DNA of 55,526 nt from a virus. Positions 1-37,825 of this stretch are shown here, one piece after another. Below the pieces are notes generated by a model that was given only the letters and a program-made list of their open reading frames with translations, searched no databases and was not told where the DNA came from. Position 1 is the first letter of the stretch; each line of letters begins with the position of its first letter. The stretch is taken from IMG/VR virus record IMGVR_UViG_3300022664_000329, positions 1-55,526 of that record; one strand, written 5' to 3'. Made by a program: the position numbers and the translations under genes.

Positions 1-127
1 TGTACTGGATCCACCAGGAATGGCTCGACTGGTACATTCTCAAGGAAGGCGAAAAAAAGGGCAAATATAAGAACGTGGACCGTGTCCGCGGCAGCGAGAC
101 GCCATCGCCGTCCAATCCCTGGCTCAC
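1..127. repeat. Terminal overlap identical to 55400-55526; the contig closes into a circle of 55,399 bp unique sequence
   Basis: Direct comparison: the first and last 127 nt (tgtactggatccaccagg...ccaatccctggctcac) are identical. A 127-nt overlap is what a k=127 de Bruijn assembler leaves on circular contigs. Confidence 0.95.
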
Positions 128-9133: not shown

Positions 9134-12100
9134 ATGTCGCACGAAGAAACGAAACGCACTGATCATATTTTCGATTTCCGCGGCTCCTGGCTGCCGTCTA
9201 TCGATCCGCTGAATATCGGCGGCAAGAATTTTTCGGCCATGGCCAATCAGATGCCCTCACCCGACGGACTGGAAGGCGTGCCGGGCTATTCAAAGGTGAC
9301 ATCGGCCGTGTATTCGTCCGTCTATACGGCGGCGCGCAGCGGCATCCAACTGCGCCAGGGATCAGGCACGCTGTCGCGACTGCTCATGCAGGCGCAAAAC
9401 GCCGCCGGGACGCAATCGGCGATTCTGGAAGTCAAAGCAGCAAGCGCCGCGGAAGACGTGCCCAACGTCAAGAATTTCGAGAGCGAACCCCTGCACATCG
9501 ACGCGCCAGGCGCCGGCCTCGGACGCTTCGCCAAATGGCCGCGCAATTCGATCGCCTACACCAACGGCCGCGAAACGCTGATCTACGGCGGCGACGAAGT
9601 GCCGCCCGCCCGATTCATCATCGGCGGAACGCCGCTGCTGGACACGATCAACAACGCGGTGGACTATACGGACGCGGTCACGAACGATCTCACGACGCCC
9701 GGCAACGTCGCCCGCATCGGTTCTTCCATCGACGCCGCGACGCTGCTTTATCTGGCCTGCGACGGGGACCAGGACGCAACGGATTTTATCGACGCCTCGA
9801 ACACGGACGGCGGCCGCGTGGTGCATACCGTCACGGCCAACGGCAGCGTGAAAATCGACCAGAAATACAAGAAATACGGCTCCGGCGCCGCCCTCTTCGC
9901 CTCCGGCGGCTATCTTTCCGCCCCGGACAGCGCCGACTGGCATTTCGGCGCGGGCAATTTCACGATCGACATGCAGACGCGGATGAATTTCGGCTCGCAC
10001 GGCCTGTGCGGTCAGTACGCGGACGCCCAGAATTTCTGGTACGCCAGGCTGACCAACGGGCTGGTGGAGGCGGGCGGCAATTCCTTTTCTGTTTCGTCGG
10101 TGTCGTTTCATGCCGTTTCCGGCGGCACGGCCGTGGCGCACTATGTGTTCACGTTCATCGATCCGATTTTCGAAAATCACTGGTACAACAAGTGGCAACA
10201 TATCGAGATCAGCCGCTCGGGCGCGACGATGCTCTGCTTCCGCGAAGGCCTCGGCCCCTCAAACACCGCGGAGACGACCGCCATCGGGACCAATGCGATG
10301 CCCGATCTGGACGCGCCTCTGACGATCGGCCGGGTCTCCAACGGCGCGTACCAGGCGCTCGGCCGCATGGATGAAATCCGGATATCCAAGGGCGTCGTCC
10401 GCCATCTGACGCCCTTCACGCCGCCCTCGACGGCCTACGGCGTATCCAACAATCTGATGGTGCTTTTCACCAACCGGCCCATCGATCGCGCCAAGATTTA
10501 TCTGACGTCTCTCAATACGGCCGCGGGGGCGGCGCTGTCCGCCATCTACTGGACCGGCGCGGAGTGGACGACGCTCGATCTCACGGACGGCAGCAGCGGA
10601 CTTTCCGTCAATGCCGGCGTCATTTCCTGGCCCGCGACCACGGGCAGCGCCAAACGCAAGCTGATCGCCGGCCAATACCGCTTTGTCTACGGGCTCGTCC
10701 TCTCCGCCGGCACGGCGGAAATCTACAAGGTGACGACGCATCCGCCGCTGCAGCCGATCCAGGATATCTGGGACGGCACGCTCCGGCCGGTGCTGGAGTT
10801 CGGACACTACCATTCGGGCGAGTTTTACGACGACACGAAAAACGTGCTCGAAGAAACGGCCGCAGGCATCGACGCCGACGCTTCCTATGTGGCCAACGTG
10901 GGCGGTCTGACGACGTCCGAGTACATCGATATCGCCGTCGCCGAACGGGCGGCCGGTTTCCGCATCACGATGTTTACGCGCAAGACGCACAAGGTCAACG
11001 TGGTCGTGGCGACGCTCCGGCCGCACTACTGGAACGGCCGGGCCTACGTCGCGCCCGAGGGCATTGTGGACGGCACGCTCGATCCCGACGACGGCACGAA
11101 GACGCTGAATCAGTCCGGCGATCTGTCCTATACGGTGCCGGACCTGTCGCAGGAGTTCCCCAGAACCGAACGCGGCAAAACGGCCTGGCGCTACCGCCTC
11201 ATTCCCAGCGATACGCTGCACTGCTACGGCGGCGGAAACGATGTCTGGATCGACAAGGTGGAGGCGATCCCCGCGCCGCAGCTGCCCAATAATCTCGGTT
11301 ATAAATTTCCGTTCATGCTGCAAAACCGCGCCATGCTCTGCAATCGCATCGCCTCCGGCGAAGGCAACCGCGTGGACTTTCCTCTGTCCGGCTCCACGGA
11401 GGGATGGAACGGCGAAGATTCGTCGTTCGGCGAAGGCAAAGACGCGCTGTTCATCGGCGGCGCGGAAGAGCTGACGTCCGCGTGCGAAATTTTCAACCGC
11501 CTGGGGTCGTCGATTTATGCGTTCGGACTGTTTTTCAAGGCCTATGAGACGTACATTCTGAACGGCTACGACGCGGAAACATTCAAATGGTATCAGATTT
11601 CAGACAAGATCGGCAATCCCGCGCCGCTGTCGCTGGATACGTACCAGATCACGGATTCCCGGCAGCAGGACCAGTCATCTCGCACGGTGGCCTGCTGGCT
11701 TTCCTACCAGGGGCCGTTCATGTATTTTGCGGGCGATATCATGCCCCTGCCCGGCCTGGACTGCTATTTCGATCCCAACGACGCACGCTGCATCAATTTT
11801 TCCGCCATCGAGGCGGCCCGCGGCTGGTTCGATCCGGACAAGCCGCACTATAATATCCAGTTTCCCTCCGGCGCCGGACAGACCGCCAATAATGTCTGGC
11901 TGGCCTACGATTTCGCGTCGAAGCGCTGGTATTCGAAAGCGCCCTCGTGCGCCAGTCCCTATCTATCCGCCCATATCTGCGTGGTGGACGCGGCCGGCCG
12001 GAAATACGTGTACGGCGCGCGCGCCAACGGGTATCTCATGCGCCTGGAGCACGGCACGACCTGGGACGGTTCGGCGATAGCGCAGTATGTGGAAACCGGT

Positions 12101-12448: not shown

Positions 12449-12979
12449 ATGGCACATTCCGGACATGAATATCTGTTGCGCCGCGCCTCGCTGCGCGAGG
12501 CGGCCAAGGCTTCGGCGACGGGCATGACGCCGTCCAACGACGAGGCAGTGGTCGAAGCGACGTCCGCCCGGGCGGCAGCGGACGCTGACGCGATCCGCCA
12601 CGACGCCGCTTTAAAATTCGACGAACGCCGTTTTGTATCCCATCTGCTCAATACGTACGATCAACTGGCCGCCTGGGGCAAGCAAAACGATCTGGCGACG
12701 CTGATTGCCGGCGCTACGCTGCCGGTGCAAGGCATCGCCGCGGCCAAGCAGATAGACAGCATGAATCGGCAGGAACAAGGCTTGAAGGATGCGGCCGCCT
12801 TGCTCCGGAAGCCCGTGGGGCTCGCTGAGGCGGCCAACGCCGAAGGCCGCGCCTTGTGGAACAATACCCGTCCATTAACCTCCGCCGAGGAAAACGCAGC
12901 GCTCCTGCCCAGAAATGAAATCGGCCGGGTGGTGGACGACTACGCCAATCAACTGAAACGGAGGCCCGTAGTACGATGA
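12449..12979 (+). CDS. Putative internal virion / ejection protein (176 aa)
   Basis: SD aaaggag upstream. Sits between the tail gene and the giant internal protein, analogous to the T7 gp13-15 block. No motif. Confidence 0.35.
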   Translation: MAHSGHEYLLRRASLREAAKASATGMTPSNDEAVVEATSARAAADADAIRHDAALKFDERRFVSHLLNTYDQLAAWGKQNDLATLIAGATLPVQGIAAAKQIDSMNRQEQGLKDAAALLRKPVGLAEAANAEGRALWNNTRPLTSAEENAALLPRNEIGRVVDDYANQLKRRPVVR

Positions 12980-15411: not shown

Positions 15412-15511
15412 CTGGCCGCAAGATAGAGGATTGATTCCCGCTTGACTTCGCCTGCGAAAATGGCAAAATAAAATAGTCTTTGCCATCAACGCCATAAAAG
15501 GAGCAGCAACT

Positions 15512-16120
15512 ATGAAAAAGATAGGGCTTGTTCTTATCCTCGCAGGATTTTTTCTTCAGCTTGCCGCCATCGCCTTGGTCGGAAACTATGAGCCGAAACT
15601 GGGATTTATCGGCAGCATGGACCGGATGGAAGTGGTTTTACATCAGGGACGTTTCGATCGGGAGGCATTTTTACACGATGCCGCCGTGGCATTCGTTTCC
15701 TCCGGCAACGTGGACCGCATCAACAAAAGCGATCTTACGTATTATCCCGATCGCGTATCCATAGGCTACCGCAGCATGTTCATCATCGCGCTCCTCGTGT
15801 TCTTTTCCGGCGCAACGCTGCTGGTCTTTTCCGGCGGGCGATCTTTTCCGGTAAGGATGCCACTGCAAAAAACACTCAGCCCCCGCGGCAGGACCGCCGC
15901 GATTATTGCGCTTGTGGTTGTGCTGGCGGCGGCTCTGGGCCTGGCCCGGGAATTGTGGCCCAATGCTTTTTGGCTGCGGATCGGCATCAGTATGATCGGC
16001 ATCGCGTTTTTCTGTTTCCTGATCGGTAAGCGCAGATCCGCGCCGCAAAATAATCCGCGGTGGCGCGACGGACTGAGACGTCTCGACGCCCCCGCACACG
16101 GGAACGAAAAAAGGATTTGA
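15512..16120 (+). CDS. Multi-pass membrane protein (202 aa), moron-like
   Basis: Four or five hydrophobic segments (LVLILAGFFLQLAAIALVG; MFIIALLVFFSGATLLVF; AAIIALVVVLAAALGLA; ISMIGIAFFCFLIG). Visibly lower GC than its neighbours. It has its own SD, and a terminator lies downstream. Confidence 0.6.
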   Translation: MKKIGLVLILAGFFLQLAAIALVGNYEPKLGFIGSMDRMEVVLHQGRFDREAFLHDAAVAFVSSGNVDRINKSDLTYYPDRVSIGYRSMFIIALLVFFSGATLLVFSGGRSFPVRMPLQKTLSPRGRTAAIIALVVVLAAALGLARELWPNAFWLRIGISMIGIAFFCFLIGKRRSAPQNNPRWRDGLRRLDAPAHGNEKRI

Positions 16121-16145
16121 TTTGTCAAAAAACTCGCTTTATAAA
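16117..16145 (+). promoter_or_regulatory. Sigma70-like promoter TTGATT-N17-TATAAA overlapping the stop codon of the membrane-protein gene
   Basis: Hexamers read directly. The same arrangement recurs at 34553-34582. Confidence 0.4.
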
Positions 16146-16153
16146 ATGGGCAT

Positions 16154-16172
16154 TCCGGCCTGATCACCCGGA
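16154..16172 (+). promoter_or_regulatory. Dyad-symmetric box TCCGGccTGATCAccCGGA (copy A)
   Basis: Near-identical copy at 34604-34622 (TCCGGatTGATCAccCGGA). Lies between the promoter and the terminator. Confidence 0.4.
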
Positions 16173-16212
16173 TCGACCCACAACATAACCCGCACACAGC
16201 GGGCAAGAACAC

Positions 16213-16249
16213 AAAACCCGGACGGCACCGCAACCGCCCGGGTTTTTTT
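16213..16249 (+). terminator. Rho-independent terminator (copy A) directly upstream of the giant gene's RBS
   Basis: aaaaCCCGGaCGGcaccgcaaCCGcCCGGGttttttt. Near-identical copy at 34634-34669. Confidence 0.6.
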
Positions 16250-16268
16250 ATGCCTGGAGGAAACCGAG

Positions 16269-19200
16269 ATGCCGGACACCGACCGCCGCAATCATCACGA
16301 CATTGGCTATGGAGAGGATTTCTACCGAGCTTTAGACCCGCATTACCACGCGCCCGCCGCCCTTCCCGAAGCAAAATCAAATAACGATGCCGGTTATGGA
16401 GAGGATTTCTACCGGACTTTAGACCCGGATGCGCCGGCAACGCAAAAATCGCCTGCGGTCAAGACACCGTTACAAAACGCCCCCGAGCAACGCGGATTTT
16501 TCAAGGAAGCGGCCTCCGCGCTGGCTTCGGGCGCCGTCTCCACGGCGGAAGCCCTGACGTCCACAGCCGAGATGATCGGCGTGCCGGGCGCCGAGCGCGC
16601 TTCTTCCTATCTGCGCGGCGTGCAGGAATCCGAAGCGCTGGTCCGCCCCGATTATCTGCGCTCAGGCACCGTCCTGGATGAGCCCGCCCGCCTGGCCGAC
16701 TGGCGCTGGTGGACGAGAACAGTCGGAGAAAATATTCCCAATGCGCTGGCGATGCTGGTTCCGGCCGGCGCGGTAAGCAAGCTGGGCCAGATCGGCAAGC
16801 TCGGCACACTGCTCAAGGGCAGCGCAACCGCCCGCCGGGCCGCCGCCCTGGGCGCCGGCTTTTCGGCGTCCTTTCCCCTGGAAGCCGGTTCGGCGTATTC
16901 GAGCGCGAAACAGGAGATGTCGGCCACAGGACAGTATGACGCGGATACGATCGAACGCATTGCCACGGCCGAAGGCCTGGTCGCCGGAACGACAAACGCG
17001 ATTATCGAGCTGCTGCCGATCGACAGCCTGCTTTTCAAGCAGTCCGGCGGCGATCGGCTGCTGCGCCGCATTCTCCGGCAGGCGTACATCGAGGGCGGCA
17101 CGGAAACGGTGCAGGAGGCGGTCAATATTCTGGTGGAGCAGTACGGGCATGCCCCCGACGCCACGCTGAAGGATCAGATCGGCCGCGTGATCGAGGCGGG
17201 ACTGGCCGGCGGGGTGATCGGCGGCGGTTTCGGCGCGACGATCGGCACGGCCGAGCATCGCGCAAAGACCAACGCCTATTTGGCCATCGCGCATAAAACG
17301 GACCTGGATGAAGATATTGTCCGCTGGAAACAGGAGGACCTGCCGGACAAAAACATTGCCGAGCTGGTATCCGCAAGGCTCGATGACTACCGCCGCAGCG
17401 CCGCGCCCGACGAAACAACGCAGATTCCCGCCAAGATCGACGCGGCGGAAATGGTGTCGTTTGTGCTGTACGGCTCCGGCAGATTCCAGCCGGACCGCTC
17501 CGGTGCAAAAAAGAAAGCAGCCGTTTTACGCGCGATGGGCATGAAACCGAAAACGCCGCCCGCGGAAATGCCGATGACGACATCGGCCGCCGACGGCAAG
17601 GCGGTGATCACGGAAGAACAACGCGCCCAGGCGCAAAACGAGCGGGCCGCCGCGAACAGGAAGGCCCAGGGAAAGACGTTGTTCGACGCGGTGGCCAGCG
17701 AGGACCTGGCCGAAACGCAGGCGATCGAACAGGCGCGCCAGGATGACGAGGCCCGCCGCAATGCAGAAACGGTCCGCCTGGCCGCCGCCGAGCAGGCCAG
17801 CCGGGATAAGGCGGTAGCAGACGCCCAGAGCCGGCAAGACGCGCTCATCGCCCGCCTGGCCGGCGCTGATCCGCAAAAGCAGGCCCTCGTCCAAGACGTG
17901 CTGGGGCTTTCGGAACGGGCGCTTTTGTCCGCTGTGCAAAAAGAGCTGAAGCTGACTGTTACGCCCGCCGGCCCGGGAGCTTACACGGTGGAGACGCCCG
18001 GCGGGCCGCAGCCCGCCGATCTGTTCGATTTACGGCAACGCCTGGCCGAAAAGCGCTCGGCCGATTTTACGGCCCGCCAGGACGAGGAAGCGGCAAACGC
18101 GGCCGCGGTCCGCCGAATGGAAGAAGAACAGGCCCGGAAAAAAAGGGAGCGGGAAGCCGCCGCCGCTCTTGATATGTCCCGCCGTTCCCTTGTGGCTTCG
18201 CTTTCCGGCCCGACGCCGCAGCAGTTGGCCCATCTCAATGCCAACCGGCAGCGTTTGACGCCGGACGAGATTGCACGCCTGGACCGCTGGATGAAGAAGG
18301 ACCGCGACTCTGCGCCGGTGTCGCCGCCGCCTGCGCCCCGCCCGCCGGCTGTTATTTCGGAAGAGGTCAATGCCGCCGCCAAAGCGGCGCCACCCCCAAA
18401 GCAGGACAACGGGCAGGATGACGAGGCGGCCCTGGTCGATCTGATGCTGTCCGATGTGGCCAACGCCCGCAAGGGCGGAGAGCTGCGCACGGACGATGCC
18501 GGAGAAACGATACGGGACACGGCGGGCATTGCCTGGCTTACGGCCGCGAACAGAGCGGGCGCGGACGTAACGGTGAAGGACGCTAAAACGGTGCTCAACA
18601 AGGTCAAGACCGGAGAGGACCTGACGGAGCGCCAGCAAAGGCAGCTGACGGCGATTCTGGACGCCATGCGGGCGGCCGGCGGGGCGAAAGTCACGCAGGC
18701 GCTTTCCTGGGCGAAAAAAGGCTATATTCCGGTGGACAATCGCCGCATCGCCGTGCGCGACATGGTGGAAGGCGACTCCTATGTGATCGACAACGAGGAA
18801 TTCCGCGTCACGGATATCGATGACGCAGGAAATGTCACGCTCAAAGACGGAACGATCAAGAAGGTCCGCGACGGCGAGATGCTGACCGGCGTGGATTTTG
18901 TGAAGCCCGTGGAAGGCGCGGAAGATTTCAGCGGCGAATCCTTTGACGACGCCATGAAAAGAGTGGAGAGCGAAGCGGAGCCCCCCCAAGCGCCGCCGGT
19001 TCCCGAGAGCCGAAAGACGCCGCCCGCTTCCGTCGCCGTGACGACGGGGCTGAAAACCAAAGCTCCGGAGAAACGGGATATTTCGCAACTGGCCGGCGAT
19101 CTGGCCGCCGGACGTATCGCGCCCGGGAAATTCACGTTTCCCGCAGATGTTACGCCGCAGGAGATAAACGAGGTCTGGGACGATCTTTCCGCCGCCGTGG

Positions 19201-22200
19201 AAAATATCGCCAAGAAAAATGAGCCTTTCATCCGCGCTCTGCATGAGGAAATTGATGCGCTCGGCCCCGCCCGCACCGCCGCTATCAAGGCGCAAAAGAA
19301 AGCGCTGCTGGATAAGATCCGTGCGCTGCAGGACGAAGCCGATGCACTTGACCGCAAAATTACCAACGCATTTGAAGGCGCCCAGGCGCAGCTCCTGGAC
19401 ACAATCATTGAACGGGCCAAGGCCGAAGGTCTGTTTATTGACGACGCAGAGTCGGAAGAGGTTTATGAGCTGTATTCGACGCTACAGGAAGGACGTTCTC
19501 ACGACCCGCTCTTTATCGACGGGAAAATCCCGGAAGATTACGTCAATACCTGGACTGTCCCGCTGGCCGAGCAGATTCTGGATGAACTGCGCGCCCAGCA
19601 GCCTACCGGCGATGCGTATCCCGTCCCCAACAGTTCCGGCGTGTACAATGAGAAGCAGAAGAAAGCCGAAGTGATTAGCTTCCCGCAAAACAAAGCTTTT
19701 GACGCGGCCGTCTATGTCTTGCAGGTCGGTCCCGAAGAATGGATTTCGGCCGAGGACGTTTCGCTCAAAACCGGCAGCTATGCGGGACAGAGCTCGCCGC
19801 TGACGAAAAATCCGGTTTTCCCGACGCGCAAAGCCGCGCTGGCCGACGCGTTGAAAACGGTGCAGCAGTTCGGCGAAAGCAATGCCCGGGATGCCAGTTC
19901 GCCTGCAACCGACAAATCGCGCAAGGCCGCCGCCCAAATCGCTCAATGGGCCGAAAAGCAATACCTGGAGCTTTATCCGCCGTCGCAGGCGCCGTCGCAG
20001 GCGGTCGCCGTGACGACGGGGCTGAAGAAGACTCCGGAAACGGCGCCGCCGCCAATAATCAAACGGATTCTTGATATTTACGGGAGATATCATTACGTCG
20101 ACCAAAACGAATTGCAGGGCGATAGAACCATTCTTAAAACTTATAATAGCCGCGGAGAGCGCCTGCTCGCCGGAGGCGGAATCCACAGAGGATATATCGT
20201 TAATCAGGAAGACACCAGCGCCGTCGAGAAGGCAAGGAAAGTGGCGAGGTTGAGGAGTCTCGAAACCAAGGCGCAGAAAGAAATGTTGACGGATGGGGAA
20301 ATAAAAGAAACCAAAAGTCTCATTGCGGAAATCTACAACAAACCGGTTGAAAAACCCTCCGAACCTGCTACAATCCCCGACGTGACACCCCCCAAGGGGA
20401 CGGCCGACATACCCGCCAAGATAACCCCACAGGCCGAGGCGTGGAAAGACAAAATAGAAGCAGATGTAAAAGACGGTTGGTATATTCATGGTAGAAGGGG
20501 CACGGATGATCTTCTTTCTGAATTTAAAAAGCATGAAATATTTGTGTCAAAAGAGGCCGATGTTGCAGAAGATTATGCTGGCAACAAAGGTTCAATTTGG
20601 CAGCTAAGACCAAAGAAAACGGCAAACATCTTAGATGCGACCGACGACATTCAACGAACCGAAGTTGTCGATAGGTTAAAAGAACAGTATGAAAGCGGTG
20701 ATCTTAACAACGGCGCATATACTAAGCTCTCGCAAGAGATTGATGACGAAATTGAATCCTACGGCGAAGGCAAAGCATGGGAAAGAATATCTGAATCACT
20801 AAATCCGAAGGATATCGTTGAAGATGAGGGATTTTATAGCGATACTGACTTTGTAAATTGGCTTTACGAAAACTTTGAATACGATTTTGTTTCAACAAAT
20901 CGCGGAGGCGTTGCCTATAATCCAGATGCTTTCGATCTAAAGAAATTCAACCCTAACCCATCCCGCCCCCCGGAGGTTGGGGGGCAGTCTGTAAACCTGT
21001 CCACTGAAGATCTGTTTGGGGCCGTTGAAAAAGCCGTGACGACGGGGCTGAAACCGAAAAAGGCCGCCGCCCTGCCGCCCGAAATGCCGATCATCCGCGC
21101 CCGCCTTCAACACCTGAAAAGCCTGGGCGTAAACACCGCCGGATATGATGAATGGGTAAAGGTTATGGAATCCGGCGACGCCGCGGCGCTGGCCAACGAA
21201 CCGCCGGCACAAGATACCCTGCGCGCCATCAATCTGACCATTGCCGAGGAAGAAAAAATATTAAAGGCCCAGGCCCAGGAGAAAGGATTCGGCGCGGGCA
21301 ATACGCTCTTTACCGAGGACAAGGCGGCTAAGGCCCGGGCGATTCTCAAGGCCAAGTTGTCCGGCGCGCAGCTCAATGCCGGCATTGATCCGGAAATCCT
21401 CACGGCCGGCATCGACCTGGCCGGGTATTACATCGAAGGCGGCGTGCGCAAGTTTGCGGACTTCACTGCAAAAATGGTGGAGGATATCGGCGAGCAAATC
21501 CGGCCCTATCTCAAGTCGCTTTACCTGGCCGTGCGCAATTATCCCGGCTTCGACAATGCGGGAATGGAGACGGAAGCCGATATCGAAAAGTCCTTGACCG
21601 CCGCCGCCGCCACAGATAAAATCGCCGCGAAGGGAGAAAAAAGCCATGCCGATTCATCTGACCTTGACGCCGGAGCAGCAGGAAACGCTCCAGCGGTTGC
21701 AGCCTCTGCTCGACAAGCAGAACAAAACGCCGGAAGATTACCGGAAGATGTCCGAGCTGTTGTATCCGGAATTGAAGGCCAAGCTCGCCGCGAAGGGAGT
21801 GAAGTTCCCCAAGGCGTAAATCTCCCGGCGGAGATCCAGGCGCACGCCGAGCAGTACCTCTACCATGCCACTTACGCGGAAAAAATCGCCGGCATCAACG
21901 CCGCCGGCCTCGATCCGACCAAATCCAACCAATACATTTACGGCAACGACACGACGAAAAGGGTGTACCTTTCCCCGGACCAGGAGTTGTCTCTCGCGTT
22001 CGGCGACGTGCTTTTGCGCGTCCGGCGCAGCGCTCTGAATCAAAAGCTCCTCAAGGAAATCGCACGCCAGGGCGGTCAGGAAGTCTGGTATTTCGACCGC
22101 ATCGCCCCGTCGCTGATCGAACGCCTCACCCCCCGCGGCGAATGGGCCGCCCTGTCTGCGCAAACGGAGAAGATTCCGCAAAGCGTGGCCGTGACGACGG

Positions 22201-25200
22201 GTGCCAAAACGCCGAAAACAAAAGAATCCCCCTACATGGCCGCGGTCGGACTGATTTCCGGCGGCCGCGCGGACCGCGCCGTTGCCCGCGGTTATGTTTT
22301 TGCCTATGGCCCGGCGGACGCCGCCACCCAAAGTGAAATGGTAGGCCTCTTTTCGGGTCTGGCCGCCGATAAGCTCATCGAGGCGGGGATTACGATAGAA
22401 CGCAAAACGCCCGCCGCCTTCAAGAAAGGCGACCGCGTGGTGATGAAAAACGGCCGCCACGGTGAAATTATCGCCGATGAAAGCTACACGATGATCGCGG
22501 CCACGATCTTCGGTGGGCAGAGAAACGTCGAGCGCTACGAAAATTACCGCGTCCGCACCGACGCCGGCGCAGAATTCGGGATGATCAAACCGGAGGACCT
22601 GACGAAGGAAACGGAAAAACCGGCCGAACCGGTGGTTCCGGACATAAAACTCATAGACGGTCATTTTAACGAACCGGACCGTGTTTTAAACCGAATCGCC
22701 CTGCATCAAAGCAATGAACAGAAAAAACGTGCTTCCGCACAACGGGCGCGAAAGCAGGATAACATTGATAAATTATTAGAAGCCGCAGAAAAAGAAAAGC
22801 GAATCGCTGCTGGTTTGCGCGCCCGCTATGACGAATGGGCCGCAAAGTATCCGGACGAAGCGGCCAAGCACGCCCCGGCCAAGACGCTGCCGCCCATCGG
22901 CCAGGTGCATCCGTCGATCCGGGAGAAGTATGCGGCAAAGCCGACTGCCGCAGCAGCAAAAGCATATCCGGACTTGACCGTGTCCGGTCACCCCAAACCC
23001 GTGCCGGATCATCCGGATGCCTCTTATGTGGTTCATATCCGCAAGCCGGACTTGATCCCTGACACTTTCCGCGTCGTTGTGTCTGCACAACGCGCGGCAG
23101 GCGGCGGTTTCCTGACGCAGGCCGGAACGGGCATGACTCCGGAACAGGCGTATGACAATGCCCTGGCCAACTACGACAGGACCATTGAAACGCGGCGATC
23201 CTCCACCAACCAGGACGCTGAGAGCGTCACGAACACAACCACACCCGTTGACAACGAAAAAACAAACGATTATAATAAGATTGAACAGGAGGCCCAAGAT
23301 GCCCCATCTGACCGACACGATACAGACGAAACATCGTCTGAAGATGATCGAGCAGGCGCTCAAGGACCAGGCACCCGAGATGTATCAGCAACTTCAGACG
23401 AAAGGTCAACTTCCGGAGTATCTCAAGGAACGCGACGCGCTGATGATGAACACGTTCGAGGTCCTGTTCGTGGAACTCTGCAAGCTGCCATCCGACACGA
23501 ATCCGACCTATCAGGAACAAGTCCAGCACCTGACTTCCGCACGCAACCGGGCGTGGGAAGAAACAATGGCGACGTGGCTGACGTTCAGCGATCCGCAGCC
23601 GGAGAGCGAACCGACCATGTCATCACCCCCGGCGCCATAGACCGTACCGGTTCCTGGTTCCAGACCGCCAAAAACAATCTCGACATCATCGAACTGGCAA
23701 AAAAAATCCAGACGGAAAACCGTCCGGCAACGCCCACCGAACAGGCGCTGCTTGCCCGCTATACGGGCTTCGGCGCGTCGGAAATCGCCAACCGGATGTT
23801 TCCCGGCTGGGCCGAAGCGGGCGAGATTCAACTCTGGCGCGCCGATCAAAAATGGAAGCCGCTGGTGGAACGCATGCAAAAGCTGTTTTCACCCGCGGAG
23901 ATCGCCACGGCCGCCCGCTCTACGCAATACGCGCATTACACCAGCCCGGCCATTATCGATTCGATCTACAAAGCGCTTGACGGCTTCGGCTTTCCCGGCG
24001 GCCGCGTCCTGGAACCGGGCATGGGCGTGGGCTCGTTTTTCGGTCTGATGCCGGAATCGATGCGGACGACAACAAAATATACCGGCATCGAAATGGACGG
24101 GATTACGGCGCAGATCGCCAAGCTCTTATATCCTCGCCAGAATATTATTGAAGGCGATTACACCAAGGCGCAGTTTCCAAATAATTATTTCGACCTGGCT
24201 ATCGGCAATCCTCCGTACGCCAAAACGATGATATTGGCCGATCCGGATTACAAGAAGCTGCGGTTGTCGCTGCATGACTTCTTTTTCGTCAAATCCCTGG
24301 ATAAAATCCGCCCCGGCGGGCTCATGGTGTTCATCACGTCGCGCTATACGATGGACAAGGTGGACAGCCGCGTGCGCAAAATCCTCAATGAAAAGTCCGA
24401 CCTCCTGGGCGCCGTCCGCCTGCCGCAAACGGCATTTGCAAAAAACGCCGGCACGGAAGTGGTAACAGACGTGATTTTTCTGCGCAAGAAAGTCCCCGGC
24501 GAAAAAAGCGCCGGGATGATGTGGGGCGAAGTCGCCCCGGTTACTACGCCGGAAGGCGATTTCCGCATCAATGAGTATTACCTGGCCCACCCCGAAATGG
24601 TTCTCGGCGATCATTCCGGCCGCGGCACAATGCAAAATTCCCGCGATCCGCAATACACGGTCCTGCCCCGCGAAGGCAATATCGAAGAGGCGTTTGCCCA
24701 GGCCGTCACCCATCTGCCCAAAGCCGTCTATTCCCTGATCAAAGCCGCGCCGGCGGTGCAGGAAGCCGCCGCGATCGAAAGGGACTTCAATCCACAAAAC
24801 AAGAAAGAAGGCGGCTTGTATCTGTCCCCCAACGGCCAGGTGATGGTCACGGAGTCCGGAGCCGGTGTGCCGATTACCGCTATCGCCCCGAAACTGTCAG
24901 ATAAAGACAGGCGCTGGTTGACGTCCTATATCACGCTCCGGGACGCGGTGAAGCAATGCCAGTATGACCAGCTCACCGACGGAGACTGGGAGTCGTCGCT
25001 CAAGGAACTCAACAGGGTGTACAAGGCCTTTAAAATGGCCTGGGGCCGCATCAATGCGTTTACGATCACTGAACGCAAATCCACGGACGAAGACGGAAAG
25101 GAAATCACCATCCATCTGCGCAAATTCGCCAACAGCCGCCTTTTGCGCCTGGATGTCGAATCGCCGCTGGTCATGGCGCTCGAAAAGGTGACGGAAGATT

Positions 25201-28200
25201 TCCAGATCGCCGACGGCCCGTTTCTTTCCAGCCGCACGATTAAAAAACCGGAACCGCCGCAAATCTCCACGGTCGCCGACGCCCTGGCCGTTTCGCTGAA
25301 TGAAAAGGGCCGGCTCGATCTCGCGCATATCGCGTCTCTCATGGGCGCCAGCGAAGCCGATGTCTTCGAGCAGCTGGGCGATCTGGTCTATGACACTCCG
25401 GATAAAGGCATTCAACTTGCCGACGCCTATCTGTCCGGCAATGTGGTGAAAAAGCTGGAGGAAGCCAAGGCCGCCGCGAAAATCGATCCCAAGTACGAAC
25501 GCAATGTGCAGGCGCTGATCGCGTCTTTGCCCAAGCCGCTGACCGCTAAAGACATTACGCCTTCTCCCGGCGCAACCTGGATTCCGCTGCCCGTGTATAA
25601 CGATTTTTTGCACGAGGTGCTTGAACTGCCCGAAAGCGCAGCCGCCGATCATTCCCCCGCCGACAACCAATGGACAATTTCCGGCCTGCCCGTGCAGTCG
25701 CAGCGCGGCCGCGCCTCCGCATGGTCATCACCCGACCGCGGCGCAAATGAAATTTTCTCTGCCGTTCTCAATAATGCGACGCTGAAGGTCTATAAGACGG
25801 AAAAAGTCGCCGGCGTTGAGAAGACGTATCTGGACCCGGCCGCGACGGCGCAGGTCAACGATATCGCCAAGAAGATGAAAATCCGTTTTCGCAACTGGGT
25901 ATGGGAAAACGCCGGCCGCGCGCACGAGCTCCTGAATATCTACAATTCCACCCGCAATAATATCGTGCCGCGGCGCTTTGACGGTTCGCACCTGACGCTG
26001 CCCGGCGTCTCTTTGCGCTTTAAGCTCATGCCGCACCAGAAAAACGCGATCTGGCGCATCATCCAGGACGGCAATACCTATATCGCCCACGCCGTCGGCG
26101 CAGGCAAGACGTATGAGATGGTCGCCGCCGGCATGGAAATGAAACGCCTGAGCCTGATTTCCAAACCGCTCTATGTGGTGCCCAACCATATGCTCCAGCA
26201 GTTTGCCAACGAGTTTCAGGAACTCTATCCGCTGGCGCATGTGATGGTGGCGGACGAGGAAAACTTCCATACGACGAACCGCCGCCGTTTCATGGCGCAA
26301 GCCGCCCTCAATAATCCCGATGCGATTGTGATCACGCATTCCGCTTTCGGTCTGTTAAAAATGAAGCAGGAAAACATCCTGCCGGTGCGCAATGACGTCG
26401 TCTCTGAAATGCAAGCCGCACTGGATGATCTCGAAGGCGATAAAAAAGCCAACCGCATCCGCATTAAACAGATGGAGGCGCGCATCGAACAGACCGAACA
26501 ACGTTTTGAATCCATGATCGCCCAGGGCGACAACGTCATTACGTTTGAAGATATGGGCGTTGATTTTCTGTTTGTGGACGAAGCCCACCAATTCCGCAAG
26601 CTGGATTTTACGACCAACCGCCAGGCCAAGGGCGTCGATCCGTCCGGGTCGGTCCGCGCTATGATGCTCTACATTAAAACACAATGGCTGGACCGTCAGA
26701 ACCCCGGCCGGTCCCACGTATTTGCCTCCGGCACGCCGATTACCAACACGATGGGAGAACTCTACACGGTAATGAAGTTTTTCGACATGGACGGGCTCCG
26801 GCGCGACGGCCTGGACTATTTCGATTCCTGGGCCGCGGAATACGGAGACATGAACTCCGCGCCCGAGATGAACGCCGCCGGCCGCTATGAGATTGTCGAT
26901 CGCTTTTCCCGTTTTGTGAATGTGCCGGAATTGATGAGCCGGGTCCGGTCGTTTATGGACGTTCTGACGTCCTCGCAGCTCGGCGCTTTTGTGAAACGGC
27001 CGAAAGTGCGCGGCGGACAGCCGACGATCGTGGTGACGCCGGCATCCCCCGCCCTCAAAAACTACCAGACGAATGTCCTGCTGCCGCGCATTGAGAGCAG
27101 CAAGAACTGGAAACCGAGTAAGGAGGAGCCCGGTAACCCCGACCCGCTCATCAATATCATCACGGACGGCCGCCTGGCGTCGATCGATATGCGGTTCGTC
27201 GCCCCCGGTTCTCCCAATGATCCGGACAGCAAACTCAATAAGTACATCGACAAGATTATTGAGCATTACAAGGAAACCGCAGGCCATACCTATCTGGACC
27301 CGGCCACGGGCCAGAAAAGCCCCGTTCGCGGCGCGGCGCAAATCTGTTTCTACAATCACGGATTCGGGCGCGGTGTGGCCTCCAGCCGCGGATTTGACGC
27401 CCGCGCCTGGGCCATGCGCCGCTTCAAGGAGGCGGGCATCCCGGTCGATGAAATCGCCTGGATTGACGATTTCGACACGGCCGCCAAAAAAGAAGCGGTG
27501 ATGAAAGAGGTCCGCAACGGCCACAAACGCATCCTGATCGGTTCGGCGAAGAAAATGGGCACGGGCATGAATGTGCAAACCAGGCTTTCTCACATGACGT
27601 ATCTGGATCCGCCCTGGTATCCGTCCGACGTCGAACAGCCGGTCGGCCGCATTCTGCGCCAGGGAAACCAAAACGAAGAAGTCGGCATTTTCTATTTTTC
27701 GACCAAGGGCAGCTATGACGCCACCATGTGGCAGATGGTGACGCGCAAGGCCAAATTCATTGAAGACGCTTTGGCCGGCGGCGGCGCCCGCGCCATCGAG
27801 GATATTTCCGAGTCGTCGCTTTACGAAATGGCCGCCGCCCTGGCCTCCGGCGATGAGCGCGCCATCCGTCTGGCCGGACTCAGAAACGAGATTGAAGGGC
27901 TGGAAAATCTGCGCTCCGCGCACTATCACACGCAGACGAATCTCCAACGTGAAAAACGTCTGTATGAAATCGGCCATCCGGGAAAAAAAGCGTATGTCGC
28001 CAAACTGGAAGCGGCGATGCAAAAAGTACCGTTCGATCTGCGATATTTATCCGCTCAGCATCCGATCAAGGCCAAACTCGGCCACCGGGACTATACGGAC
28101 CGCAAAGCTTTCGCCCAGGATCTCCTGGCGAAGATCGTGGCTCTGCGCAATGCCGGCACGGCAGGCACGACACCGATCGGCCATTTCTTCGGGCTGGAGT

Positions 28201-31200
28201 TGCGTGTTGTGCAGGCGCAGGGCGGAAACACGGAAGTGTGGGACCGCAGCGGACAGACGGAATTAATCCCCGGAAAGGTGGTCAATCAGCTCCAACTGCG
28301 CATTACGGATGATGTGATCTATGACGTCGCCAGCGATATCACGGATACGTCCGACGCGCCGGGCCTCGTGACCCGGCTCACGAACCGCGCTAAAGCCGTG
28401 CCTTCCGATCTGGCTCAGGCGAAACAATCACTGGAAGAAACCGAAACGGAACTTAAAAAGATCAACGCCCGTCTCGGCGCGCCTTTTGAGCTGGCGCGTG
28501 AACTGGAAGAAAAAATCGCCGAAGCGGCGCAGATTGACGCCGATCTGGTCCGCGAAGGACAGGCCACCGCCGCCGCACAACAACAGCAGCACACTGCGCC
28601 GGCGCAAACACCCGATCAGACTCCGCCCGACACTTCCGGGCCGATGCTTTCGCTCGAAGAAACTCCGATATTTTTCTCGCAGATGTCCCGCGTGCTCCAG
28701 GCGAAGCTCCCCGGCTCCGGAACGCCCGAACAGTACCGCTCCGCGATTGTCTCCTGGGCCAACAAGGGCGAATTCAAGGCCGACGAGTTGAAATGGTCCG
28801 GGCTCACCGACTGGCTGGTGGCGCAAAAAGGGAAGCTCGCCAAACAGCAGGTGCTCGATTATCTGGCGGCCAACGAAGTGCAGCTCCGGGAAGTGCATCT
28901 CTCCGACACCCCCTCCGATCCGCAGCTGGACCGTCTGAAAAACGCCTTTGCACAAGCCGAGGAGGGCGTACGGGCTATCGAGCAGGCGCTGGGCGCCCGT
29001 CCCTATATGTCCGGTGCGCCTCTGCGCTGGATGTACCGGCCGGACGACGAAGCGCCCCGGAATGTGCCGAAGCAGTATTTCGACACGCTGGACCGCTGGT
29101 CGGAAGCAAGACTCGACCTGGATGATTACCAGGCCACCCATGAAGGATTTTTTGAAGAAGATGAGGAAAGCACCGGCCGTACGCAATACTCTAATCAACA
29201 ACTTCCCGGCGGAAAGAATTACCGGGAACTGCTTTTGACGCTGCCGGAAAAGAAAACCGTCCCCACATTGAAGCACTCTTACCGTTCCGCCCATTGGAAC
29301 ACGCCCAATGTTCTGGCGCATGTGCGCTATAACGACCGGACGGATGCCAACGGGAACCGCGTCTTGTTTCTGGAGGAAGTCCAATCCGACTGGCATCAGG
29401 AAGGCAGAAAAAAAGGGTATGCTGACGACAAAATTACCAGGACGCCGCCGACCCGGGACGAAATAGCGCAAGAGATTTATGGTGCGCGATATGCGGACCT
29501 GGACACGGTAACGCAAAGCGCCGTCGATGGAGAACTTGACGCCAGAATTCATGGCACCGGCGGCGCCGCGCCTGCGACCAGCGGCATCAGTTACGTTCCG
29601 CCTGCGCCGTTTGCCAAGACCTGGCATGAGCTGGCCATGAAGCGGATGCTGCGCTATGCGGCTGAAAACGGCTACGACAAGGTGGCTTGGACCACGGGCG
29701 AACAGCAGAACGAGCGATACAATTTGAGTAAGCATATCGAGAGTATTGGTTACCACAAAAGGGGCGATTTGTTCGCGCTCACCGTTTGGGATAAAAAAGG
29801 CAAGGCTATATACCAAAATCAATCAACCACGAAGCAAGAGGTTGAGAACACCATCGGCAAAGAAATGTTGCAAAAGATGGAAGCCAATGTCGGACGCCGG
29901 GAAAATGGGAATTTTTACATTGAAGGTCTCGACCTGAAAGTCGGCGGCGAAGGAATGAAGGGCTTTTACGATACGATCCTGCCCGCCTTCGTGAATAAGT
30001 ATGCGAAAAAGTGGGGGGCGAAAGTCGGTACAGCGGATATCCGGACGGAAGCATTAAACAGGACGCCTGGAGCAGCTAAAGCTGATACGGTATCCGTGCA
30101 CGCGATCGACGTCACGCCCGCGATGAAAGAGTCCGTCCTGACCGGGCAGCCGATGTTTTCGCGCCAGGATAAAACAGCCCACCGGCGCCCCCATCGTCTG
30201 GGCGACGTGGAGCTGGATGAGATGGTGCAGCAGCTCGCGGCGCTGCTCAAGGGCGTGAAAATTGTCAAACACGGAAACGAAATCCGGCTCAAAACCCGAT
30301 CCGGTGAGGAAGTCCGGATCGAATCCGCCGAGCAGATCGATCCGGACACCATCGCGCTGGCCATCAAGAAGCATTATTCGCAGGATAAGAAGCAGACGCC
30401 GCAATCCGGCGCAGGCGTGGCCGGTATGTATTCGGCGGGCAAGATCACGCTGGTGGAGGATGTGGCGGGCATCTGGACGCTGTCCCATGAGTTTTATCAT
30501 TTCCTCGAAGACATCGGCGCGATATCCAACGCCGACAAGGCAACGCTGAACCGCAAAATTGCATATCTCGTCACGTCTCAACCCGAAACCTATGGCTATC
30601 TGCAGGAGCGGTCGCTCCCCGAACAGCGGGCCGATTACGTGGGCCGCACGCTCACGGGCATGTATGACGCGACGACGCCGACCGGCACGATCCTGGCGCG
30701 CATCCGCGAAGTCATCGACCGCATTCTCAACGCGCTCGGCATCCGGACGGCCCGCGGCATCCTGCGCGATATTGAAACCGGGAAGATTTATAAGGACCAA
30801 GGGGAAAGGAACAAGGGGCAAGAGAAAGGGAAAACTCCCCTCCTCCGGCAGGATATTGACAACATCCGGGAACGGGCTTATACTTATGGTGAAGGAGGTA
30901 AGCATGAGACATCTGTATCCGATTCCGGATTCGACGGAGAAGGTAGCCGGCAGTATCCCGGACGAGACGCCGCCTTACGGTTCCAGCCGACCGTCGTCGG
31001 CCGCGAAAAGAAAGGCTCCATCCCGGCCGCAGGACGCATCGTCCGAACACCACACGACGCCGCGAAAATCGCAGCAACGTATCTAAACAAGTATCCAGAT
31101 GAACACATGATTTCCCTTGTCCTTGATGCCAAGGGCAAGGTCATCTCCGTGTATCATCACACCAGCGGCCTGCCCGGAAACTCCCAGGCATCGATGCCGA

Positions 31201-34200
31201 TTCTCGCCGGCGAAGCCATGAATACCCCCGGCGCGTCATCTATTATTGTTGCCCATAACCATCCGTCCCAAAACGCTGAATTTTCGCCAGAAGACCGTGC
31301 ATTTGCCCGCCAACTGAACAACTTATTGACCGGCTCCGGCGTGACCATGCGGGATTTTCTGGCAGTTGCACAGAAACAATATTCTTCTTACAGCGAAAAT
31401 ATGCTCGTTTATGTCGACGACAGCGTTGACATAAACAGCGCCAGATCAGGAGTAAAAATCCCTATTGTTGGCCGAATCTTTGAATCGGTACGCTCTCCCC
31501 TCCTCAAGGTTTCGTCCGCCGAGGATGCCTTGCCGCTGGCGCAGCAGTATATCCCCGACGGTGGAACATTGATATTGGATGGCCAAAACGCCCTTGCCGG
31601 TTTTTCCACTATTCAGAACTATGGACGAATTCGCGGCGACGCGCAGCGGGCTATTTTGCAGGATATCGAAAAACGAAACGGCCGCGCCATGATCGTCTAT
31701 TCCCCCGGTCGTATCGTCGGCACAGCCGAATCTTTTAATCTCGGGAAGTTTATTGCTGCAACCGGCGGCCAGGTCCGCCTGTTAGATATTATTGATTCGT
31801 CCGGCTCTCACGCGGACAATGGGGATATGCCCGCGATTCCCACGGCAGATTCCAGCTTGTTTTTGTCCGTTGCCGAAGATGTCACCGAAAAAGCGGCAGA
31901 CGCCGTCGGGCGCAAAGTCTCCCGCGCGGTCGATCTGATCACGGGGCGCGTATCTCCCGAAAAACGGGAGACGCTTTCCGCCCTGCGCAAAAGCTGGGCG
32001 GAATTCTGGCGGCCGTTTTCGACGGTGACAAACGGCGAGGAGGTCCTGGCCCGCCGCTATGAATCGATGGGCAATGTGGCCAAGGCGGTGCGGTTTATCG
32101 AGACGATGAAGGCGGAACTGGATCAGTTCCCGCCGGAAACGAAGAAAGATATTTTCTGGTATCTGAACGGCGACATTCCGCTGACCGTCCTGCCGGAAGA
32201 CGCCCAGACTTTTGCGAAAAATATTCATCGCCGGACGGAAATTATCGGTGAAATGCTGGTGGACCGCGGGCTCCTGACGGAAGAAACCTTTGAGGCACAC
32301 AAAGGCACGTACGTTCACTACCTTTACGCCAAGCATATCGTGGGCGAAGATGCGCCCGTGGGCATTACGTCGTCGGGCAAGCTGGATCTGTCCTACACGC
32401 TCCGGCGCAATCCCGATCTGACGATGCAGCAACGCAAGGAGCTGGGCCTGATCGACGATGCTTCCGTCGCCGTGCCGGTGGGCATGGGCAAGGCGCTCAC
32501 GGATATTGCGAAGTTCGATTACCTGGAGACGATCGCGGAAAATCCCGACTGGGTCTGGCAGCCGTCCGTGGTGCGTGTGGCCGTGGGCAAAAAGCTCAAG
32601 ACGCCGGTGATGGGCCGGACGCGGCGCTATGTGATGATGGGCATCGGCAAACTCCAGGAACAGGTCCGCACGTATGACGAGATGATGCGGACGCGGCCGA
32701 CTACCGAAGTGGCGGAGATCCACAAAATCCTCACGGACGCCTGGCAAAAAGAGCAGGCCAAGACGCAAAACGCGCCCGCCGACTTCGTGCAGCTGCCCAA
32801 CACGCGCGGCTACGGGCCGCTCGCGGGCGCCTTCGTCAAAAAGCCGATCGCGGACGATCTGCGCCCGGTGATGGATGTCAATACGGACCGCGGCAAACTG
32901 CTCAACACGGTTCTGGAAATCGAACGCCAGGGCATGGCGGCGTTCAAGATGGGGAAAGTCGCGCTCAATATTCCGACGGCCTGCCGTAATATCGTGTCCA
33001 ACATCATTCAGAACAACATGCGCGGCCGCGCGCTGGCGAAGATCCCCGGCGATATCGTGGCCGCCTGCCAGTCGATGAAAGCCAGGGACGCTCATTATGA
33101 AGAGGCGTTCGGCATGGGGCTGTTCCATACGAATTGGTTCGTGACGGAAATCAACGATGTGCTCCAGGAATTCCGCAAGATCGAGTCCGGCCGGATCGAT
33201 CAAATCCTGTCTGCGGTGAAAAACGTGGCGAAGTATTACGGCCGGATTGACGATATCAGCAAGTTTGCGATCTTTCTGCAGATGCGCAAAGCCGGCGCTC
33301 CGATCGACAAGGCCGCGATCGAAGCCATGAAATGGGGAATGGACTATTCGCTCACGTCGCGCTCGATCAAGGGGCTGCGCCAGACGATCATGCCGTTTGC
33401 GACGTACCAGTATAAGATCGCTCCGCTCATCGCCGAATCGCTGCGCAAGCGGCCCTGGGTGCTCGCCAAGTTCGCGCTGATTTATCCGGCGGCCAAGCTC
33501 GCGGCGATGGCGCTGCACGATCTGGACGACGATGACTGGGAGGACCTGGAAAAACAGCTGCCGGCCTATATCAAGAAGTCCGGCTCGATGATGATTCTGC
33601 CCTGGAAGACGGATCAGGATCAATGGCAGTGGGTGAATCTGGAGTATTATTTCCCGTTCGGCAATATGCTGGCGATTTTCCGCGATGCCAAGGCGCTGGA
33701 TTCCGGCGAGGCGCTGCGCGATCTGGGCATTTCCAATCCGTTTCTATCCATGTTCTACACCGGGCTTTCGGCCCGCGAGGATTCTCCGCCCTTGCATGCG
33801 TATTCCGGCATTCCGATTTACAATGAGCTCGATCCGGGATGGATGAAGGCGGCAAAATATCTGGAGTACATGGCCAATACGTGGCTGCCCGGCATGCTCA
33901 CGCGCCAGGGCGCCCTGGGCTACACGGGCAAAGCGATTGCCGGCGGCGAGGACCGCTGGGGCCGCGAGGTGTCGTTCGGCCAGGCGCTCGGCCGCTGGTT
34001 CGGTTTCAATATTGTCTCGGTGTCGCCCGAGCAGTCCCGCGCGCAGGTGGCGGTGAAGATCCAGGATCTGCACAAGGAGATGGCCCGGATCGAGGCCGAT
34101 CCGTCCCGCAGCGACGAAGCTAAGGCGGAATACCGCGCCCGGATGAATGAAGAGTTGTCGCAGATGGCCGAGCAGGCGCCGGCCGCCGTGCTGCCGATCA

Positions 34201-34556: not shown

Positions 34557-34582
34557 TTTGGAGTTTTTTTTTACGCTATAAT
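34553..34582 (+). promoter_or_regulatory. Sigma70-like promoter TTGATT-N18-TATAAT overlapping the stop codon of the giant gene
   Basis: Hexamers read directly. Paralogous to 16117-16145. Confidence 0.4.
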
Positions 34583-34603
34583 ATTTCAACAATTAGATGA
34601 TGT

Positions 34604-34622
34604 TCCGGATTGATCACCCGGA
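34604..34622 (+). promoter_or_regulatory. Dyad-symmetric box TCCGGatTGATCAccCGGA (copy B)
   Basis: Copy of 16154-16172. Confidence 0.4.
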
Positions 34623-34633
34623 TAACCCAACCC

Positions 34634-34669
34634 AAAACCCGGACGGCACCGCAGCCGCCCGGGTTTTTT
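34634..34669 (+). terminator. Rho-independent terminator (copy B)
   Basis: aaaaCCCGGaCGGcaccgcagCCGcCCGGGtttttt. Differs from copy A by one loop base. Confidence 0.6.
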
Positions 34670-34695
34670 GATTAACCGAACCCAGGGAGGTCAAT

Positions 34696-37757: not shown

Positions 37758-37825
37758 TGTACTACTTTGTGTGTTATTTGCTACCCCGTCATACAAAATA
37801 AACATTGTAAGGAGTGTCACTGGTC

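Follow-up and report, generated by a model that had tools for sequence, protein, structure and literature searches.

In the PR'-qut-tR' region of phage lambda (6S RNA, Q), a constitutive-looking sigma-70 promoter leads, in the space of about 100 nt, to a strong intrinsic terminator, and the essential late genes beyond the terminator have no other promoter. The nutL and nutR sites of lambda (boxA-boxB, N) and the putL and putR sites of HK022 follow a cis-acting antitermination logic, with a conserved small RNA hairpin that occurs twice per genome, just downstream of promoters and at variable distances from promoter and terminator. Short RNAs of bacteria and phages, such as DapZ and MicL, which are type-I small RNAs (sRNAs) derived from 3' untranslated regions, and the lambda oop RNA, offer a further comparison; in the DapZ/MicL type the promoter lies over the end of the upstream open reading frame (ORF), the terminator is shared, and the RNA of about 80–100 nt has a 5' hairpin and a U-tail. 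The PeSL elements of T4-type phages combine an AT-rich tract, a sigma-70 promoter and a stem-loop terminator in about 100 bp; they extend to the ribosome-binding site of the gene that follows, flank both ORFans and accessory genes and are thought to provide homology for modular shuffling (PMC2839356, PMC4122927). Here we compare with these systems a cassette that occurs twice in a viral stretch of 55,526 nt (IMG/VR record IMGVR_UViG_3300022664_000329, positions 1–55,526; referred to as the window). Copy A, at 16105–16249, and copy B, at 34541–34669, bracket a giant gene coding for 6095 aa (16269–34556, plus strand).

The cassette has not been described before; it is real and conserved, and its mechanism is what we infer here. 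It is probably a genuine but modest regulatory element. Our preferred reading, to which we give a probability of roughly 0.4, is that it may act as a portable transcription gate, with a conserved hairpin as licence signal, that emits an RNA of about 80–100 nt.

Structure of the two copies

The copies were compared block by block; pairwise alignment with MAFFT misplaces the dyad. They share four parts in the same order, namely an A-tract with a TTGATT -35 box, a -10 box, a hairpin UCCGG-[N-Y-UGAUCA-N]-CCGGA and a terminator. In sequence, the shared blocks are CGAAAAAAGGAnTTGATTTG, in which the TGA of the upstream gene lies within TTGATT, the -10 box, TTCCGGnnTGATCACCCGGAT, a short AACCC, and AACnCAAAACCCGGACGGCACCGCA(A/G)CCGCCCGGG followed by 6–7 T. 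A preliminary description had reported a duplicated promoter-dyad-terminator module around the giant gene, and all of its sequence statements hold. Its parts are as it gave them, but the limits had to be adjusted, as the shared block starts about 8 nt earlier, with CGAAAAAAGGA at 16105 and 34541, taking in the last codons of both upstream genes, and copy A has an additional hairpin.

All features of both cassettes are on the plus strand. In copy A, the UP-like A-tract and the -35 box occupy 16105–16122, with TTGATT at 16117–16122, and this block equals copy B at 19 of 20 bases; the stop codon TGA (16118–16120) of an upstream 202-aa gene sits inside the hexamer. The -10 box (16140–16147) is TATAAA at 16140–16145 after a 17-nt spacer, or TAAAAT two bases on (9/12 matches), and transcription would start near 16152. 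Hairpin 1 (16154–16172) is the dyad TCCGGCCTGATCACCCGGA, which is predicted to form a UCCGG stem, a 9-nt loop CCUGAUCAC and the closing CCGGA. The extra small hairpin CCCGCacacaGCGGG (16189–16203; CCCGC-acaca-GCGGG) has no counterpart in copy B. The putative intrinsic terminator, AAAACCCGGACGGCACCGCAACCGCCCGGG followed by T7 (16213–16249), consists of an A-tract, a GC stem of 5+3 bp with a conserved A.C mismatch, and U7. The Shine-Dalgarno sequence and start codon of the giant gene follow at 16256–16271 (GGAGG at 16256–16260, ATG at 16269), in a block GGAGGAAACCGAnATGCCGGACACCGAC that is almost identical in L011, a related contig described below.

In copy B, the A-tract and -35 box lie at 34541–34558, with TTGATT at 34553–34558, and here the stop codon TGA (34554–34556) of the giant gene itself is embedded in the hexamer. 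The -10 box TATAAT (34577–34582) follows an 18-nt spacer and brings the promoter match to 10/12, with a likely start of transcription near 34589. Hairpin 1 (34604–34622) again pairs UCCGG with CCGGA around the loop AUUGAUCAC. The terminator (34634–34669) matches its equivalent in A at 35 of 36 bases and departs from it only in the loop, and an 83-aa gene with its Shine-Dalgarno sequence comes next (34685–34947; GGGAGG at 34685–34690, ATG at 34696).

Exactly two occurrences each of the -35 block, the dyad and the terminator were counted in the genome, compared with 0.58, 0.10 and 0.00 occurrences expected from shuffled sequences, which excludes chance; no third copy was found in the genome with looser regular expressions. 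The two terminators resemble each other more closely than the terminator of A resembles the one at the corresponding position in L011, so a recent duplication or homogenisation by gene conversion is indicated. The similarity of A and B may be maintained within the genome by either process.

The predicted RNAs, of about 97 nt for A and 80 nt for B, fold into a 5' hairpin and a terminator, and they do so better than shuffled sequences (z = -3.6 and -3.8, respectively). It is the terminator that drives this effect, with the dyad hairpin by itself being of ordinary stability (z = -0.4 and -0.9). The terminators are strong: their stems reach -13 to -17 kcal/mol and are followed by 6–8 U. On the minus strand the terminator forms an uninterrupted helix, whereas the plus strand carries the A.C mismatch, and it may therefore act in both directions.

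Occurrence in relatives and conservation

When IMG/VR and GTDB genomes were searched with the 202-aa protein, the 424-aa product of the neighbouring tail gene and the N-terminal part of the giant protein, no close relatives were found. A query with the fibre-like protein encoded behind copy B returned three IMG/VR contigs, which share only its C-terminal part and have no cassette, and the exact terminator sequence had no match in IMG/VR. It was the 424-aa tail gene that served as the route to distant relatives. In L011 this gene is 33% identical, the gene order is the same and a cassette is located upstream of the giant gene. The L011 cassette consists of TTGACT-16-TATAAT, AUCCGGA-CUGAUCA-UCCGGAU and AAAAACCCGGUCGGCA...UGCCUGCCGGG followed by U8, and it leads into a near-identical ribosome-binding site and the first five codons of the giant gene. 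Between the tail gene and the giant gene of L011 we also noted a match to Rfam sRNA-Xcc1 above the gathering score (57.4 bits; 12892–12977); two more promoter-plus-hairpin spacers are found at 11339–11428 and 12764–12870 of L011.

A pattern scan of JGI metagenomes gave 18 matches, among them two further true members. In one of these, L154, the cassette lies between the C-terminus of a giant-protein homologue and a homologue of the 83-aa gene and is the counterpart of copy B. In the other, L151, it lies 150 nt after a tRNA-Arg gene and before an HTH_17 gene and a D5 primase gene whose product is 44% identical to that of the window, so that the cassette heads the early operon of a related prophage. 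The prophage-like element of L151 (463–12000, beside tRNA-Arg(CCT)) was seen to code for this D5 primase, a ResIII/endonuclease, a DUF4062/Fic-like protein and an N6/N4 methylase. In the IMG/VR contig L016, which carries a Mu-like head operon, the 20-nt hairpin recurs unchanged immediately ahead of another terminator and without a promoter. With about two chance matches expected in that collection, L016 is an uncertain member; were it genuine, hairpin and terminator would form the core of the unit. Contig L166, considered as a different context for the 83-aa gene, was rejected as the same phage with frameshifting assembly errors.

The preliminary description had made its proposal depend on the presence of the module in relatives of the same gene order. 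Its presence in L011, L154 and L151 contradicts the refutation that was set, but one relative of the same gene order does lack it, namely L023, in which the N-terminus of the giant protein is 57% identical and the giant gene begins 29 nt after the tail gene, with neither an accessory gene nor a cassette between them. Where it occurs, the whole unit keeps one order and shares the strand of the gene downstream, in variable genomic contexts, and sequence conservation drops sharply beyond its limits.

Within these limits, the hairpin stem (U)CCGG/CCGG(A) and the UGAUCA core are invariant in six sequences (A, B, L011, L151, L154 and L016), with the loop consensus N-Y-UGAUCA-N and variable spacing of the hairpin among members. 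The 5' arm of the terminator, AAAACCCGG(N)CGGCA, is kept in sequence; the loop and the 3' arm vary, and pairing is saved by wobbles or register shifts. The spacers are not conserved. Upstream of the hairpin, promoter-like scores of 9, 10, 11 and 10 out of 12 were found in four of the five cassettes, and only 4% of the 90-nt windows of this genome reach a score of 9. Neither the dyad nor the terminator is specific by itself. The dyad alone was found at eight IMG/VR loci, mostly coding, and at 120 or more loci in bacterial and archaeal genomes, a chance level, with none of them beside the terminator. The terminator pattern alone matches unrelated phage terminators, so the conservation of its 5' arm counts only within this lineage.

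Of the variants listed for four metagenome runs, the ones located in a cassette affect the promoter spacer, the spacer of copy A, the -10 box of copy B and the position just after the U-tract; the hairpin and the terminator stem are free of listed variants.

Possible functions of the cassette

Copies A and B would be paralogues in a small family of portable transcription cassettes belonging to an uncultivated temperate podovirus-like lineage of digesters and wastewater. In each of them, the -35 box of a predicted sigma-70-type promoter, preceded by an A-tract, abuts or overlaps the stop codon of the upstream gene, and the transcript would begin 0–15 nt before the 5-bp hairpin with its conserved 9-nt loop. 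A variable spacer of 11–40 nt separates the hairpin from a strong putative intrinsic terminator, with the ribosome-binding site of the next gene 17–70 nt further on. Placed at module junctions, such a gate would halt transcripts arriving from upstream as well as those from its own promoter, the latter ending as an RNA of about 80–100 nt. The genes behind the gate would be made by read-through only; these would be the giant anti-defence gene in the case of A and the block of 83-aa, fibre and lysis genes in the case of B. The pair would bracket the giant gene because that gene is accessory cargo located at a junction of this kind. As recognition element, the conserved hairpin is the obvious candidate, which would make the logic nearer to that of lambda N/boxB or HK022 put than to that of Q.

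Behind terminator B we found no promoter able to serve the 83-aa, fibre and lysis genes, the sole promoter-like site there overlapping a start codon. This block is essential and has no other promoter, so read-through of the terminator must occur in lytic growth. The order of promoter and then terminator is kept in five instances, and the product of the promoter should therefore be a short RNA or a leader that normally terminates. The gate and small-RNA readings are compatible with each other.

The preliminary description had likened the arrangement to lambda PR'-tR' with antitermination of the Q type. What stands of this is the promoter-into-terminator architecture, which is real and kept in relatives, and the read-through required for the fibre and lysis genes; a putative sigma-70 promoter followed by a predicted intrinsic terminator within about 200 nt before late genes is what characterises a Q unit, and it is present here, with the lysis genes behind B in the place of the essential late genes of lambda. 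There are also differences. Two copies lie inside the late region instead of one at its head, and qut has no counterpart to the conserved transcribed hairpin of the cassettes; a -10-like pause element common to the initial transcribed regions was not recognisable by eye. With nut and put the cassettes share a conserved promoter-proximal hairpin at each putatively regulated operon (A, B, L011, L151 and L154, and also L016), twice per genome in the window and with variable spacing to promoter and terminator. They differ from nut in having a 9-nt UGAUCA loop instead of a GNRA-like pentaloop and no rrn-type boxA shared by the cassettes, UUUAACAA being found only in L011, and from put in having one hairpin, not two. 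In contrast to both, the terminator itself is conserved and only 11–40 nt away.

Two other explanations for conditional termination were rejected. Nascent-RNA folding shows no shared antiterminator structure, so a riboswitch-like alternative fold does not apply, and the small ORFs that might support leader-peptide attenuation (5 codons in A, 24 codons in B) are not conserved in L011. In a bolder version of the proposal, the UGAUCA hairpin would be the signal of a new cis-acting antitermination system, using either a phage RNA-binding factor or a put-like RNA that acts on RNA polymerase, or else kissing loops of both RNAs would couple expression across the giant gene, in each case defining a new class of phage regulatory RNA. 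We regard this as quite improbable.

Several results weigh against the gate. The preliminary description had suggested a search for a Q-like antiterminator among the early genes; Pfam and PHROGs searches of about 45 ORFs turned up neither a Q nor an N family protein, although a divergent one could escape, and in place of a Q gene the genes upstream of the cassettes are an ORFan and the giant gene. The giant gene of L023 appears to be expressed without any cassette. The promoter of L151 scores only 8/12, and some populations have TATAAC for TATAAT in the -10 box of copy B, which is expected to weaken the promoter. No covariation was seen in a five-sequence alignment, where 0 of 20 pairs changed on both sides, hairpin 1 never varies and the terminator pairs vary on one side only or through a shift of pairing register; the structure is thus backed by conservation only, and an RNA role is inseparable from a DNA role. 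In addition, the conservation of the terminator in sequence, especially of its 5' arm, would be unneeded for a simple gate and seems to fit a functional RNA better. In public RNA-labelled runs only scattered fragments of about single-read length were found, possibly derived from DNA.

As an observation in its own right, a very basic 63-aa ORF at 45950–46141, with an arginine-rich N-terminus (MSKTRSARKQNRRD) and no family match, is the only speculative candidate for an RNA-binding, N-like antiterminator.

The main rival explanation, possible but in our view somewhat unlikely, takes the cassettes as genes for small regulatory RNAs of about 97 and 80 nt, with downstream expression being merely leaky read-through. 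The preliminary description had also offered two small paralogous RNAs as a reading, and the data agree with it fully. As in the type-I RNAs mentioned above, the promoter would overlap the end of the upstream ORF and the terminator would be shared. Promoter, 5' hairpin, single-stranded spacer and U-tailed terminator make up the classic layout, and judged from the sequence a promoter of its own, a 3' end at an intrinsic terminator and a conserved structure all appear to be in place. As happens in sRNA families, both the shape and the sequence of the terminator are kept, the loop is invariant among all members, and the same slot of L011 holds the bona fide sRNA-Xcc1. The loop (C/U-U-G-A) also fits what we take to be the YUNR pattern of antisense-RNA recognition loops, and its self-complementary UGAUCA could make loop-loop contacts, either with the sister RNA or with a target. 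On the other hand, the spacer, which would be the usual seed region, is not conserved, so that the linear seed of DapZ/MicL-type RNAs is missing, and no Rfam family was matched above its gathering threshold (best score 21.8 bits against at least 40, from generic terminator-bearing models). An autonomous sRNA gene would not need a dependent gene, yet the cassette is always placed directly before a gene on the same strand that has no other promoter, and in L016 hairpin and terminator occur without a promoter at all. A second rival holds that the cassettes are passive punctuation or recombination linkers like PeSL elements or moron boundaries, in which the hairpin has no specific role, the terminator attenuates the dose of a costly giant gene, the promoter tops it up and the repeat provides homology for swapping cargo. 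The PeSL precedent, where promoter and stem-loop cassettes flank ORFans and recombine mutually, speaks for this (PMC2839356, PMC4122927), as do the presence of a sigma-70 promoter and a stem-loop terminator in a spacer that extends to the ribosome-binding site, which is how PeSLs are defined (PMC2839356), the accessory cargo flanked (an ORFan and a polyvalent gene), the steep fall of conservation outside the cassette, and the three types of junction together with L023, which lacks both the cassette and an accessory gene at that junction. The stem-loop of a PeSL, however, lies between or over the promoter boxes, so that its own transcripts escape it (PMC2839356), whereas in five of five cassettes the terminator lies 60–100 nt downstream of the -10 box and the transcript would contain all of it; promoter and then terminator is the reverse of a PeSL and wasteful for punctuation. 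Hitch-hiking does not explain a stem and loop that are invariant where the neighbouring proteins are only 33–60% identical, the genome has just two copies instead of dozens, and its phage is temperate and podovirus-like. Recombinants, mini-circles or deletion forms were not seen in the contigs of eight runs. The preliminary description had proposed that the direct repeats could mediate deletion or exchange of the cargo: the three junction types and the absence in L023 fit such cassette-like mobility, but no joint deleting 16250–34669 was found in the contigs of the eight metagenome assemblies, which cannot show rare forms. We consider the passive linker rather improbable.

The least supported explanation, which we think very unlikely, is that the dyad acts as DNA, either as an operator for a dimeric phage or host regulator that would shut off the cassette promoter or as a crossover site of a serine recombinase; the small serine recombinase of this phage (Resolvase domain, 50922–51536, minus strand), acting on the two direct copies, could excise the giant gene as a circle. 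The dyad is invariant without covariation, lies between +1 and +35 of the putative promoters, and has a central AT in TGATCA that presumably resembles a serine-recombinase crossover dinucleotide. However, in every copy the axes of the inner TGATCA and the outer TCCGG/CCGGA palindrome are half a base pair apart, which argues weakly against a single dimeric DNA-binding protein. There is no similar dyad at the switch region of the CI-like repressor (about 37750–37830), and the chance-level occurrence of the dyad in bacterial genomes, never by the terminator, also speaks against it. Recombinase sites usually adjoin the recombinase gene, and a separate inverted-repeat family does so here and is the likelier target; an excision joint was not seen in the contigs of the eight runs.

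The genes around the cassettes and their meaning for the phage

The first and last 127 nt of the window (1–127 and 55400–55526) are identical, which makes the window a complete, circularly assembled genome of about 55.4 kb. It codes for a portal/adaptor, a major head protein and tail proteins, a large terminase sharing only about 23% identity with the terminases of podovirus isolates such as Burkholderia phage BcepC6B, a lysozyme, a D5-type primase-helicase and a tyrosine integrase, as well as, on the minus strand, a CI-like HTH_3 repressor and the serine recombinase. This gene content points to a temperate, podovirus-like phage. Near-identical copies were found in metagenomes of biofilm, digester, sludge and wastewater, and no likeness at the DNA level to any isolated phage was found.

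The giant gene between the cassettes codes for a DarB-like polyvalent protein with Eco57I-type methyltransferase, ResIII/SNF2 helicase and RadC/JAB domains. We take it to resemble the giant virion proteins P1 DarB and Bcep22 gp75, which are presumably injected anti-restriction proteins. Its N-terminal domain is 57–60% identical in L011 and L023, and the L011 relative carries LPD1 and MuF_C domains. As a methylase-helicase-RadC protein it belongs to the class of polyvalent proteins that Iyer and colleagues described (PMC5512222). In-frame indels of 1026 nt (20006–21033) and 1509 nt (28647–30157) occur in this gene among metagenome populations, the former dropping one unit of an internal repeat of about 1 kb (19015/19987/21013).

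Upstream of copy A, the accessory gene (15512–16120, plus strand) encodes a hydrophobic ORFan of 202 aa, whose last codons and stop lie inside the cassette. It has no homologue but itself among 5.8 billion proteins and no Pfam or PHROG match. A promoter-like site precedes it at 15442–15469 on the plus strand (TTGACT-16-CAAAAT, with TG upstream), which together with terminator A gives a moron-like layout; the TTGACT block is kept in the relative L010, before a different hydrophobic ORF. The layout of promoter, gene and terminator is that of lambdoid morons, from which the giant gene differs in lying between two identical promoter-then-terminator units in place of a promoter and terminator of its own. 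The slot 3' of the tail gene is an accessory hot spot, occupied by the ORFan in the window, by the different ORF in L010, and in L011 by sRNA-Xcc1 and four extra genes, for a PLD-like protein, a 218-aa protein, a Rha-family protein and a 91-aa protein. The block behind copy B contains, in addition to the 83-aa gene, genes for the fibre-like protein (34962–35975), a small membrane protein and the lysozyme (36685–37122).

Several other features of the genome were observed. Beside the serine recombinase gene there is an inverted-repeat cluster (TGCCGGTTTTGCC..., 50224–50578), one pair of which flanks a 97-nt AT-rich segment with many TATAAT-like boxes, possibly an invertible promoter. Between about 50290 and about 50990 the sequence diverges by about 8% in two of four runs, with no inversion joint in their contigs. 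In the AT-rich regulatory gap at 50475–50489, TATAAT is followed by TGATCAC, and the resulting ATTGATCAC equals the loop 9-mer of copy B; the match may be a coincidence, as the genome has 19 TGATCA sites where 9 are expected. A sigma-54 promoter considered at 50563 was rejected for its wrong spacing. Between small low-GC ORFs of the plus strand, one of them DUF7736, about four intergenic hairpin repeats (roughly CCGGAGCG-N-AGCGATCGG) are found at 46670–47660; this array adjoins the genes for HTH_17 and the integrase and resembles a second group of accessory cassettes. Ahead of the small terminase gene, ACACGTATGG is repeated three times in tandem (52192–52221), perhaps as an array of binding sites for a packaging protein or a late activator. 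A direct repeat of 125 nt is 97% identical between 39617–39741 and 41981–42105; the small ORF at 39494–39754 duplicates a piece of the D5 primase-helicase gene, and a truncated second D5-like gene is located at 43571–44422. Outside this genome, six IMG/VR contigs (L171–L175 and L180) have a conserved promoter TTGCGC-N17-GCTACAAT, followed after about 90 nt by a terminator AAACCCGGTCGGCAAAACCGGG plus T8, a unit absent from Rfam that has the appearance of an sRNA gene.

If the gate reading is correct, it would show an uncultivated phage lineage insulating and timing a very large, probably toxic anti-defence gene, and such cargo could move among genomes together with its own control element. The compact hairpin-plus-terminator gate would then join the short list of phage antitermination and short-RNA devices, and with a unit of about 100 nt it is open to direct testing in reporter fusions. 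Should the cassettes turn out to be mere punctuation, they would still provide a clean non-T4 case of promoter-terminator linkers at mosaic junctions.

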